The translations under genes and the position numbers were made by a program. This document shows positions 973-7,671 of a stretch of DNA of 64,000 nt, one piece after another. Origin of the DNA: a virus. Positions within the stretch are counted from its first letter, which is position 1, and each line of letters opens with the position of its first letter. The notes beneath the pieces were generated by a model. The model had not been told where the DNA came from. It searched no databases and was given only the letters and a program-made list of their open reading frames with translations. The stretch spans positions 90,412 to 154,411 of the IMG/VR virus record IMGVR_UViG_3300042307_001176. One strand, written 5' to 3'.

Positions 973-1032
973 ATGAACAAAACAATTAACATATTACCTA
1001 TATCATTAAGACCGTCGTCAAGACGATCCTAA
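973..1032 (+). CDS. Attenuator leader peptide 1 (MNKTINILPISLRPSSRRS)
   Basis: Codons 7-19 are only ATA/TTA/CCN/TCN/AGA/CGA, matching downstream tRNAs; followed by antiterminator and terminator. Confidence 0.8.
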   Translation: MNKTINILPISLRPSSRRS

Positions 1033-1065
1033 AGGTCCTATGTTAATAAAAAATAATCATTAACT

Positions 1066-1099
1066 AAACCGGGACCTTTAAAAGTCTCGGTTTTTTTTT
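1066..1099 (+). terminator. Attenuator terminator, tRNA operon 1
   Basis: AAACCGGGAC/GTCTCGGTTT stem plus T tract; 1071-1080 can alternatively pair with 1030-1039. Confidence 0.85.
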
Positions 1100-2153: not shown

Positions 2154-3005
2154 ATGGCAACAACAAGACCTTTTTCGTATAATCCAACGCAATCAACAAT
2201 TGCTGGAACTACTAATTTAGGTACCATATGTATAGGAGTATCTGATTTAGACTATGCTGCTAGCCCTGGAGGATTAACGTGGTGGATGGGACCGGATGAA
2301 GATAATTCTTATGTAGTATGCAAGGATGTACCAGCTCAAAATTTCCCTACTCCGTTAGGAAATATAGGCAATGTACAATTTTGGAGATGCACTAATACAG
2401 ATTTAGCATTTAGAGATATGGTATCTACAATAAGTGGTACTACACAAGCATCGGCTTCAGCAGCTAGTGATTGGTTAGCATCTAATAACTATTGGACTAA
2501 CAGAAATCCATATCTTGCAGGTCTATATAAAACAACTTACTCTGGATATTTCGCAGATTCAGTTAGTTTCTTTGCAACTGCAACTCCTCAAGCATTTGGA
2601 ACAAACCCAGCTACTTCTGTACAAACTACTGCAATATCAGAAGCAGCTAGTGGTGATGGTGATTATTTTAGTTGTCAATGGTTGGGTTATTTCAGTCCGA
2701 CTACTACTCAAACTTATACATTTTACACCAACTCGGATGATGCATCTTATGTGTGGGTTGGAGCAAATGCGATATCTGGATTTACTACAGCAAACGCAAC
2801 AGTCAATAATGGAGGTGCTCATGGTCCTATAGAGGCATCAGGTTCTATAGATCTAACTGCAGGAGTTTATTATCCTATAAGAATTCAATTCGGTGAAGCC
2901 GGCGGAGGTGATGTACTTACTTTCAATTATTCAACACCAACGATAGCAAAAACAACTAATGTAACAGGATTAGTTTTCTATAATACATCAACTAACGGAT
3001 TCTAA
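2154..3005 (+). CDS. PA14-domain protein (possible virion carbohydrate-binding)
   Basis: FSCQWLGYF..TYTFYTNSDDASYVW..NNGGAHG..YYPIRIQFGE; N-terminus shared with next gene. Confidence 0.8.
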   Translation: MATTRPFSYNPTQSTIAGTTNLGTICIGVSDLDYAASPGGLTWWMGPDEDNSYVVCKDVPAQNFPTPLGNIGNVQFWRCTNTDLAFRDMVSTISGTTQASASAASDWLASNNYWTNRNPYLAGLYKTTYSGYFADSVSFFATATPQAFGTNPATSVQTTAISEAASGDGDYFSCQWLGYFSPTTTQTYTFYTNSDDASYVWVGANAISGFTTANATVNNGGAHGPIEASGSIDLTAGVYYPIRIQFGEAGGGDVLTFNYSTPTIAKTTNVTGLVFYNTSTNGF

Positions 3006-3010
3006 AACAT

Positions 3011-3787
3011 ATGGCAACAACAAGAGCATTTTCATATAATCCAACACAATCAACAATTGCGGGAACTACGAATGTGGGTACTCTATGTATAGGTGTATCT
3101 CCTTTAGCATATAGTACTAACCCTGGTGGATTAACCTGGTGGATGGGACCAGACGAAGATAATTCTTACGTGATAGCTAAGGATGTATCAGCTGGAAATT
3201 TTCCCACTCCTGTAGGGAACGTAGGTAATGTACAATTTTGGAGATGCACTAATACGGATTTAGCATTTAAAGATTTAGTATCTATAATAAGTGGTACTGC
3301 ACAAGCATCGGCTTCAGCAGCTAAATCATGGCTAACAACAAATAATTATTGGACTAATTATACCAGTGGTGTAACTTTCTCTCGCCCTTTCGTTAATGGT
3401 ATTGCACCAGGAGCTACCACAGAAACTGCTTGGAATACATTCAGAGCAGCATTAACGGGATCTTATACACAATTTGTTATATCAAATTCATTAGGATTTA
3501 GTCTAACCGTAAGCCATGCTACTTCGGTCCAAACTTTGGCAGATGCTTTAAAAAATGCAACAAGCAATACCTCAGTAACTATAAACAGCGTAGTTTGGAG
3601 AGTGGGAACAGCTTGTGGAACTCCTTCTATTGGTGGAGTTGCTGTTGAATTTTCTAATGTAGGAAGCTGTACTGGATCAAGTACTATAGCATTTAGACCT
3701 ATGATTAATAACTTAAACTGGGGAGGTATGGGTACAGGGTCTACTGTAAGCCAGGCTTCTCAAACAATGACACTAACATTTAGCTAA
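3011..3787 (+). CDS. Paralog of 2154..3005 with a different C-terminal domain
   Basis: Highly similar first ~117 aa, unrelated C-terminus. Confidence 0.8.
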   Translation: MATTRAFSYNPTQSTIAGTTNVGTLCIGVSPLAYSTNPGGLTWWMGPDEDNSYVIAKDVSAGNFPTPVGNVGNVQFWRCTNTDLAFKDLVSIISGTAQASASAAKSWLTTNNYWTNYTSGVTFSRPFVNGIAPGATTETAWNTFRAALTGSYTQFVISNSLGFSLTVSHATSVQTLADALKNATSNTSVTINSVVWRVGTACGTPSIGGVAVEFSNVGSCTGSSTIAFRPMINNLNWGGMGTGSTVSQASQTMTLTFS

Positions 3788-3950: not shown

Positions 3951-4106
3951 AGATATATAAGTAATGAAAACATTTAAAGATTTTATTTACGAAAAAATTA
4001 ATGAAGACACATTATCGTATAGGGGATTAGTTTTCTATAATACATCAACTAACGGATTTTAAAACATATGGCAACAACAAGAGAATTTGCATATAATTTA
4101 CAATAA
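3951..4106 (+). repeat. Mosaic duplication scar (chimeric mini-ORF 3964-4062)
   Basis: 3951-4029 copies 4219-4297; ~4024-4083 copies ~2967-3026; joined at shared GGATTA. Confidence 0.85.
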
Positions 4107-4231
4107 ATTAAATAAATAGAGAATATTAAAAATTAGGCAAAGTAACCACAAACCCACTGGTAATAGGCAGTTCTTGAGATGGAATGCAATATAAAACGTA
4201 AGTCCTGCTTTGCCTTTTAGATATATAAGTA

Positions 4232-4816
4232 ATGAAAACATTTAAAGATTTTATTTACGAAAAAATTAATGAAGACACATTATCGTATAGGGGATTAAAA
4301 TTTAATTTTAATTCAACTATCGATGGGTATGTTAAAGTAAAAGAAGATGATCCAACTATATCATTTGATAGTGAAACCTCGTTTGATAAACTTATAATAA
4401 CCGATCCTCGTGAATTCTTTAACTTTAGATATGATAATGAAAAGGATAATAAGAACTTATCTTCTATTGATTCAGAAAATGTTCTTAGAATTAGAATTGG
4501 ATCTAAAGATTTTAAGGGAAGATCCGGCGGGGTTACTCATGTATCTGTAAGAGTCCCTGAAAATTTTGACTATAATAAATTTCAATTAGAGTTACCTAAT
4601 ATAAAGATAGCGCTTACAGATAGAACTGAAGTAGACAGAGTTATTAAAGAAGTTGAGGCTCTTGTAACTAAATGTGCAGGGGAAGAACCTAATGCGTATT
4701 CAGATAATAAACCAGATTACAGACAGGACATCGTAAATTTTATTAAATCTATAGAAGAAAAGCTAGGTAAAGAAGATACCAAAAGAATATTTATTGATAT
4801 TATTAATAAATTGTAA
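4232..4816 (+). CDS. Hypothetical protein, possible internal head protein
   Basis: N-terminus MKTFKDFIYE resembles T4 capsid-targeting sequence. Confidence 0.75.
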   Translation: MKTFKDFIYEKINEDTLSYRGLKFNFNSTIDGYVKVKEDDPTISFDSETSFDKLIITDPREFFNFRYDNEKDNKNLSSIDSENVLRIRIGSKDFKGRSGGVTHVSVRVPENFDYNKFQLELPNIKIALTDRTEVDRVIKEVEALVTKCAGEEPNAYSDNKPDYRQDIVNFIKSIEEKLGKEDTKRIFIDIINKL

Positions 4817-5170: not shown

Positions 5171-5201
5171 GAAACTTTTCTGTACATTTGGAGTATATAA
5201 T
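5171..5201 (+). promoter_or_regulatory. Stacked promoters of tRNA operon 2
   Basis: GAAACT(5171)-N17-TATATAAT and TACATTTG (5183-5190). Confidence 0.6.
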
Positions 5202-5222: not shown

Positions 5223-5312
5223 ATGAAACACTTTTTAAATATCGCAACAGATTTTCAACTTCGTAAAGAGGATGACCTTCTAGAGGATAGATTTAAGTGT
5301 CAGAGGAAATAA
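5223..5312 (+). CDS. Attenuator leader peptide 2 (MKHFLNIATDFQLRKEDDLLEDRFKCQRK)
   Basis: GAG GAT GAC CTT CTA GAG GAT run (5268-5288) matches downstream Glu/Asp/Leu(TAG) tRNAs. Confidence 0.8.
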   Translation: MKHFLNIATDFQLRKEDDLLEDRFKCQRK

Positions 5313-5333: not shown

Positions 5334-5362
5334 AAACCTCTGATAACCTCAGAGGTTTTTTT
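5334..5362 (+). terminator. Attenuator terminator, tRNA operon 2
   Basis: AAACCTCTGA/TCAGAGGTTT plus T tract; 5337-5345 alternatively pairs with TGTCAGAGG 5298-5306. Confidence 0.85.
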
Positions 5363-5370
5363 GTTTTATA

Positions 5371-6797: not shown

Positions 6798-6835
6798 TAC
6801 TTTTGCGAAACTATTCTGGAAACAGGATATATAAT
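6798..6835 (+). promoter_or_regulatory. Stacked promoters of tRNA operon 3
   Basis: TACTTTTG (6798), GAAACT(6807)-N17-TATAAT(6830), GATATATA (6826). Confidence 0.6.
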
Positions 6836-6843
6836 TAAGAAAA

Positions 6844-6951
6844 ATGAAAAACTGTAGTAAACATAACATCAATCGCATGATCAGTCAGATTAATGGCTGC
6901 TATCAAACGGTGGCGTTTTGGGCAAAGGGGAAAGAACCCGATCGAAGCTAA
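6844..6951 (+). CDS. Attenuator leader peptide 3 (MKNCSKHNINRMISQINGCYQTVAFWAKGKEPDRS)
   Basis: Codons 2-30 contain all 16, and only the 16, amino acids of the downstream tRNAs. Confidence 0.85.
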   Translation: MKNCSKHNINRMISQINGCYQTVAFWAKGKEPDRS

Positions 6952-6979
6952 TACAGGAAATCATATTTAGATATTTTGG

Positions 6980-7013
6980 AAAAGGCTTTGATTCACATCA
7001 AAGCCTTTTTTTT
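6980..7013 (+). terminator. Attenuator terminator, tRNA operon 3
   Basis: AAAAGGCTTTGAT/ATCAAAGCCTTTT plus T tract; 6984-6992 alternatively pairs with ATCGAAGCT 6941-6949. Confidence 0.85.
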
Positions 7014-7450: not shown

Positions 7451-7588
7451 ATGATGATAGAAAGTAAAATAGTAGCCAGAGGAAGTTTCCCCTCAAGCAG
7501 AGAAAACTTAAGAAGAGAAACATTAAAATTTAATAGAGCCAAAATATTGATCGGAAGAATTAAAAGACTAATTAACAAAGGAAAGTAA
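7451..7588 (+). CDS. Small basic ORF (45 aa) inside tRNA operon 3
   Basis: MMIESKIVARGSFPSSRENLRRETLKFNRAKILIGRIKRLINKGK*; stop overlaps 5' end of tRNA-Ser. Confidence 0.45.
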   Translation: MMIESKIVARGSFPSSRENLRRETLKFNRAKILIGRIKRLINKGK

Positions 7589-7665
7589 TCTCAGATGGTG
7601 ACGGGGCTCGCCTGCTAAGCGAAGCGTACCTTAATTGGTATTTGGTTCGATTCCAATTCTTTCCG
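7580..7665 (+). tRNA. tRNA-Ser(GCT)
   Basis: TCGC-CTGCTAA-GCGA, long variable arm; somewhat atypical D arm. Confidence 0.85.
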
Positions 7666-7671
7666 CAACAT

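Follow-up and report, generated by a model that had tools for sequence, protein, structure and literature searches.

The pheM-pheST operon of E. coli uses a leader peptide that reports charged tRNA to control part of the translation apparatus, and so provides feedback on decoding capacity. Unlike the phage leader described here, it controls a synthetase, responds to one amino acid and lies on the host chromosome. The leaders thrL, ilvL (of ilvGMEDA) and trpL (PMC1183508) consist of a short ORF carrying control codons and four RNA regions, I to IV, which pair as a protector (I:II), an antiterminator (II:III) and a terminator (III:IV), and they show super-attenuation when there is no translation. 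Leader-peptide attenuation has also been reported in Flavobacterium (PMC9723704).

Other systems link tRNA and gene expression by different means. In T-box riboswitches (PMC4695836), the state of a specific tRNA sets the choice between terminator and antiterminator with codon-level specificity, but uncharged tRNA is bound directly, translation is not involved and each element senses one tRNA. The Anabaena trn operon with its repressor TrcR (PMC8421152, PMC10272220) is a horizontally spread tRNA array that stays silent until translational stress; its control lies in a protein repressor at the promoter and is general, not codon-specific, and the word "attenuation" is absent from PMC8421152. Phage tRNAs counter tRNA-cleaving immunity in the case of T5 and PARIS (PMC12409363), and such counter-defence has been put forward as a hypothesis (PMC10264068); the accessible portions of these two papers describe no sensor and no conditional expression of the phage tRNAs.

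We describe here a leader, leader 1, which precedes the first of three tRNA arrays of a phage in a 64,000-nucleotide stretch of DNA (the window). It has every testable feature of the thrL/ilvL/trpL class and lies outside the curated leader families. A short ORF lies between a promoter and the regulated tRNA genes, its control codons are cognate to those genes, and an intrinsic terminator (1066-1099) stands ahead of them. Computation and comparison of homologs indicate that the protector (1:2) and the antiterminator (2:3) are mutually exclusive, and in the computed geometry a ribosome on the control codons frees region 2, while one that has reached the ORF end masks it. Super-attenuation without translation is likewise computed. 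Leader 1 differs from the thrL, ilvL and trpL leaders in that it regulates tRNA genes and not enzymes, is phage-borne, has no sequence homology to them, and would sense 5-6 isoacceptors at once, with isoacceptor specificity split among three leaders whose combined codons span the code. None of the curated Rfam amino-acid leaders was matched at its gathering threshold; a weak match to Thr_leader (RF00506) at 988-1100 (22.8 bits against a gathering threshold of 55, E 0.097) does not amount to membership. For T-boxes there was no Rfam match even at E≤1, and the leader-1 element is an ORF that would be translated. A T-box is reportedly found ahead of a Clostridium tRNA operon.

The phage and its first tRNA array

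The source record is a linear virus of 154 kb, a large uncultured phage, approximately 66% complete, with 33% G+C. Its phage genes are T4-like and include a terminase, portal, tail sheath, late sigma factor and helicase. The closest named matches of the terminase are Tenacibaculum phages PTm1 and PTm5 and phage PAU, at 32-34% identity, with uncultured huge phages ranking above these three. A TAnnTTTG box precedes each of the three tRNA arrays, at 929, 5183 and 6798. Because these boxes match the Flavobacterium sigma-A -7 consensus (PMC9723704), the phage host is likely to belong to the Bacteroidota. No sequence homolog of leader 1 or leader 3 was found among 50,697 GenBank phages, and there is therefore no cultured model; one further search matched tRNAs only, and a pattern search of GTDB genome contigs did not find the leader-1 core pattern. 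The parts of array 1 are as follows.

929-936, + strand: promoter box TAnnTTTG of the Bacteroidota sigma-A -7 type; the same box lies 42-46 nt ahead of the ATG in nearly all homologs
973-1032, + strand: leader ORF 1, 19 codons and TAA; the matched codon block is codons 7-17 (991-1023)
985-1047, + strand: protector (1:2) helix, 985-999 with 1033-1047; MFE -17.1 kcal/mol with the inner hairpin
1010-1028, + strand: inner hairpin, 1010-1016 with 1022-1028; candidate RNA polymerase pause hairpin
1030-1080, + strand: antiterminator (2:3) helix, 1030-1039 with 1071-1080; -14.3 kcal/mol including an inner A/U helix, 1042-1047 with 1059-1064
1066-1099, + strand: intrinsic terminator (3:4), hairpin 1066-1093 and a run of nine T; -13.4 kcal/mol
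1102-1112, + strand: site after the terminator that we take, from its sequence, to be boxA-like; core TCTTTGA invariant in 18 homologs
1130-1219, + strand: tRNA-Ser(UGA)
1223-1297, + strand: tRNA-Arg(UCU)
1464-1537, + strand: tRNA-Pro(UGG)
1544-1618, + strand: tRNA-Ile(UAU)
1622-1696, + strand: tRNA with anticodon CAU, probable Ile2 (lysidine type)

The five tRNAs and their anticodons, including the probable Ile2, agree with the initial annotation. The tRNA at 1622 has C4-G69 and C5-G68 pairs, which we take to be TilS determinants. The other two CAU tRNAs of the phage are of initiator type (5553, with a C1 mismatch and a GGG/CCC stem) or have elongator-Met features (8308). Because it carries these pairs and is unlike either of the others, the 1622 tRNA is likely, on sequence features, to be Ile2. 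No promoter box was seen between the leader-1 terminator and the first tRNA. The Leu-UAA gene, which closes the array in most relatives, is absent from array 1 of this phage; a degenerate copy at 1697-1775 was considered and rejected, there being neither an alignment with the relatives' gene nor a remnant of it.

Some features around the arrays are worth recording in their own right. Arg-UCU and Pro-UGG are separated by a non-tRNA insert of 165 nt (1298-1463; fold -30.4 kcal/mol), which may encode a small RNA, tRNA-like or otherwise; in relatives, the starts of these two tRNAs are approximately 240 or 80 nt apart. A TROVE/Ro60 gene immediately precedes the first array (L173:1846-3492, before the window start) and is also present in L175 and L180, which have a second copy within the tRNA region. 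Ro60 proteins usually act together with Y RNAs or tRNA-like RNAs, and the gene may relate to the unannotated inserts. An unannotated element of about 90 nt with a closing stem (4131-4218) recurs in L073 and L091 directly after terminator 2 and before tRNA-Glu, with compensatory changes in the closing stem; it has no Rfam match at gathering threshold, and probably represents a structured RNA belonging to the tRNA arrays. In related phages (L017:910-981, and L121), tRNA-like genes were called with anticodon TTA, which would read the TAA stop. The motif GATATATAA occurs just ahead of many start codons (230-240, 2142-2150, 3951-3960, 4221-4230), and ahead of the leader-1 ATG in most relatives; it is a possible late promoter, which would give leader 1 a second promoter. 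In the interval from array 1 to array 2, the starts and ends of genes are duplicated over short lengths (3951-4030 and 4221-4298; 2968-3030 and 4020-4090), which suggests recent recombination among the PA14-type modules there.

Codons of leader 1 and its homologs

The ORF at 973-1032 was confirmed, and its codons 7-19 are exactly those listed initially. We defined set 1 as ATA, TTR, TCN, CCN and AGR, which make up 20% of the codons in 122 phage genes. Leader 1 has 12 of its 18 codons in this set, against 3.6 expected (P 2.6e-5), and codons 7-19 have 12 of 13 when TTA is counted. With Leu excluded and standard wobble only, the match is 8 of 18 against 2.0 expected (P 3.9e-4). Nucleotide shuffles of leader 1 reached 12 set codons in 5 of 200,000 cases, and of the 308,746 windows of 13 codons in the six frames of the 154-kb contig, one has at least 12 set-1 codons and starts at leader-1 codon 7; AT-richness as the source of the codon bias is rejected by these two controls. 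The other two frames of leader 1 contain 2 and 0 set codons.

The cognate tRNA of the two TTA codons is missing from this phage's array. Judged from the sequences of relatives, these codons match the Leu-UAA gene, present there and lost here, and Leu-TTR would belong to the set sensed by leader 1. CGA (codon 18) is predicted to be structural and not a sensor codon, because it lies past the computed switch point and inside the inner hairpin.

Homologs were found via the neighbouring protein, the terminator and the upstream gene (29 loci, 25 distinct leader-1 sequences), and a promoter/ATG pattern scan contributed one homolog. The phages are related, and the cell counts that follow are not independent events. 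At codons 7-14 of the 25 distinct leaders, 192 of 200 cells are in set 1; at codons 2-6, 25 of 125 are. Distinct variant codons at 7-14 fall within the set in 19 of 25 cases, where single-base neighbours would give an expected 8.6. Synonym choice at codons 7-17 is highly skewed, with ATA at 63:3, Leu TTR at 52:4, Ser TCN at 55:0 and Arg AGR at 51:0; Ile is ATA only 8:19 at codons 2-6, and phage-wide usage is 46% of Ile for ATA and 57% of Leu for TTR. The ORF start and phase are retained in 24 of the 25 leaders.

Codons 10-12 are the most variable and are mostly unpaired, yet 73 of 75 cells are in the set, so that RNA structure does not explain the codon conservation. These positions interchange among Ile, Leu, Ser and Pro; it is therefore the codons that are conserved and not the peptide, and a conserved functional peptide is rejected for the same reason. 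Codons 6-9 also pair within the protector, and part of their conservation is therefore structural.

The usual array order is Ser-UGA, Arg-UCU, Pro-UGG, Ile-UAU, Ile2, Leu-UAA. In the related phage L109, which shares the two upstream genes, the array is Ser, Arg, Ile2, Leu-UAG and Leu-GAG, with neither Pro nor Leu-UAA; Pro codons are absent from its leader, and CTG and CTC are present. L018/L177 have neither tRNA-Pro nor Pro codons in the leader, and both of the arrays without tRNA-Pro (L018, L109) thus have leaders without a Pro codon. L094, L114 and L178 have no Ile-UAU and a single ATA in the leader, compared with 2-4 elsewhere. TTA is retained without a Leu-UAA gene in the present window, L085 and L178, and L018 retains Ser codons without Ser-UGA. 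Some of the variant leader codons also take part in the protector. Leader codons co-vary with the array in part, and from these sequences the tracking appears to be visible over longer divergence and not at each recent loss. In L008/L179 (L008:4440-4600, L179:13370-13560), the leader-1 start codon has become ATA with the other elements kept, and the three arrays are eroded and fused, a possible decay of the system.

The initial annotation read leader 1 as sensing the decoding of Ile-ATA, Pro, Ser-TCN and Arg-AGA codons. This reading, with Arg-AGR in place of Arg-AGA, is supported by the anatomy, the codon match at isoacceptor level and the conservation; the sensing itself we infer.

RNA structures and the proposed switch

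The region 940-1130 folds at z = -4.3. The antiterminator previously noted, 1030-1039 with 1071-1080, is real and has nine Watson-Crick pairs and one G-U; a helix that long onto the terminator 5' arm was seen in 4 of 3000 dinucleotide shuffles. A protector of GACC with GGTC, also suggested at that stage, can indeed be drawn, but it is weak, and is rejected as the main 1:2 helix, at -7.0 kcal/mol against -17.1 kcal/mol for 985-999 with 1033-1047.

Folding without a ribosome gives this protector and the terminator, each with probability 1.0. When the ribosome's A site is placed on codons 5-16 of the nascent transcript, the antiterminator has a probability of 1.0, which falls to 0 once the ribosome is past codon 16-17 (from 17-18 on); with ribosome footprints of 12-15 nt, the switch point is at codon 16-17. 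In each of the three leaders, the matched codon block stops where the switch point is computed to lie (codons 17, 22 and 28-30). A ribosome stalled at codons 4-6 (Thr, Ile-ATT and Asn, which are outside set 1) is predicted to give partial opening of the switch (P 0.4-0.6). Because of this prediction the specificity of leader 1 is probably not absolute, and some cross-talk with array-3 tRNAs is expected.

For the finished hairpin at equilibrium, the antiterminator, at -14.3, and the terminator, at -13.4 to -14.7, differ little in energy, which is also the case in trp (PMC1183508). With a stall at codon 12 the equilibrium probability of the antiterminator ranges from 0.0 to 1.0 across homologs, and it wins only in some. 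Co-transcriptional kinetics must therefore decide. The conserved hairpins are candidates for RNA polymerase pausing.

Each of the 27 homologs tested is predicted to fold a protector over region 2 (P≥0.93), in some cases in a different register. Across 18 aligned sequences, the off-state structure has 90% of its cells paired and five two-sided changes, far above slid controls; the protector is paired in 82% of cells (three pairs with two-sided changes) and the inner hairpin in 95.6% (two such pairs). The 7-bp core of the antiterminator is paired and invariant in 18 of 18 homologs, and because of this invariance the leader-1 antiterminator is without covariation. The pattern used in the homolog search fixed region 3, not region 2. 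Elsewhere in the genome the RNA model matched weakly at two places, both of them ordinary terminators at gene ends.

We propose, with a probability of about 0.8, that leader 1 acts by ribosome-mediated attenuation, which would switch the tRNA genes on when their codons are decoded slowly. Transcription by host RNA polymerase would begin at the TAnnTTTG promoter, and the 19-codon leader would be translated by a host ribosome. If ATA, TTR, TCN, CCN and AGR are decoded fast, the ribosome would move beyond codon 17 and cover region 2 (1030-1039); the terminator would then fold and transcription end at about 1095-1099, leaving the tRNAs off. If charged tRNA for any of these codons is scarce, because it has been cleaved or degraded, lacks its modification or its amino acid, or cannot keep up with phage demand, the ribosome would linger at codons 7-16, melting the protector and leaving region 2 free. 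With polymerase pausing coupled to translation, free region 2 would capture the terminator 5' arm, and the polymerase would read into Ser-UGA, Arg-UCU, Pro-UGG, Ile-UAU and Ile2. The newly made tRNAs would relieve the stall, constituting negative feedback. Without translation, the protector and terminator would both form and the array would be off.

A stalled ribosome responds in one way whether a tRNA is cleaved, uncharged or unmodified. It can respond to loss of a tRNA, whereas a T-box could not. We favour shortage of tRNA over shortage of amino acid as the input, because of the isoacceptor partition and because tRNA is the output. A plausible trigger, by analogy, would be the tRNA-cleaving defences that phage tRNAs are described as countering (PMC12409363, PMC10264068); as in T5, phage tRNAs would replace depleted host tRNAs, which supplies a likely purpose for the system.

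Three leaders and alternative readings

Arrays 2 and 3 have leaders of their own, and the three leaders are not related to one another.

5223-5312 (ORF) and 5334-5364 (terminator), + strand: leader 2, 29 codons; promoter 5183-5190; before Glu, Asp, fMet and Leu-UAG
6844-6951 (ORF; 6844-7012 with the terminator), + strand: leader 3, 35 codons; promoter 6798-6805; before the 16-tRNA array at 7038-8613

Codons 16-22 of leader 2 are a run of seven Glu, Asp and Leu-CTN codons, but only 9 of its 28 codons are matched (P 0.036). It has a compensatory variant, in which the terminator arm and antiterminator are changed together (L072, L082, L175). In leader 3 the first 30 codons are all array-3 codons, and it names all 16 of the tRNA species that follow, which random sets of 34 codons did in 21 of 300,000 trials. 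The AGY codons of leader 3 require tRNA-Ser(GCU), which is at 7580-7666; it was missed by default ARAGORN and at Rfam gathering, and found at a relaxed threshold. In L176, leader 3 is unchanged above an array reduced to 7 tRNAs. The codons of Ile, Ser, Arg and Leu are each divided among the leaders by isoacceptor, in parallel with the tRNAs among the arrays.

On balance, we consider it probable that these leaders form a three-channel sensor of decoding capacity, in which each array is gated by a leader written in its own isoacceptor codons. Such a sensor would detect the loss of particular tRNAs, for example by anticodon nucleases, and resupply the block on demand. It would amount to a counter-defence that is inducible, and to the first case of tRNA genes controlled by leader-peptide attenuation. 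A literature search, mostly outside subscription journals, found no account of such attenuation.

The partition bears directly on whether the same attenuator has amino-acid starvation (Ile, Leu, Ser, Pro, Arg) as its true input, with codon choice merely tuning sensitivity via selective isoacceptor charging as in classical leaders. Uncharged and missing tRNA are alike to a stalled ribosome, and the strong codon bias of classical leaders is explained by selective charging (PMC1183508). We nevertheless consider this unlikely: tRNA as an output is no cure for lack of an amino acid, the division of Ile, Ser, Arg and Leu among leaders runs by isoacceptor in parallel with the arrays, and in L109 the Leu codons have changed along with the Leu tRNAs. 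The partition, with disjoint codon sets in the three leaders, would also be needless in a general sensor of translation speed or coupling, where any slowing of the ribosome (host shut-off, antibiotics, toxins) opens the terminator and the codon match is secondary. The partial opening predicted for stalls at codons 4-6 and the poor codon match of leader 2 fit such a sensor; synonym choice is strictly kept and follows array content, and we regard this explanation as quite improbable.

It is very improbable that there is no regulation, the terminator serving the upstream genes, the ORF being a chance or vestigial one, and the tRNAs being products of constitutive transcription from a different promoter or of leaky read-through. 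A consensus scan does give as many terminator-like sites as shuffles, and the L008/L179 lineage has lost the ATG while its elements remain; but it is this lineage whose arrays are eroded, and elsewhere start and phase are kept. The promoter box lies upstream of the leader with none seen between terminator and tRNA, and chance is excluded by the codon and helix statistics.

The purpose of phage tRNAs has been debated for 50 years, between codon compensation and replacement of tRNAs destroyed by host defence (PMC10264068). If ribosome-mediated attenuation of the tRNA arrays is correct, phage tRNAs would be a conditional response, on only when their codons are read slowly, and the debate would be open to direct assay, in that observing what opens each leader in the infected cell would reveal which tRNAs run short, and why. 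Leader-peptide attenuation would then apply to tRNA genes as well as to biosynthetic enzymes, would resolve isoacceptors and would take as many as 16 inputs in a single leader, and the leaders would provide compact reporters of tRNA depletion for Bacteroidota.
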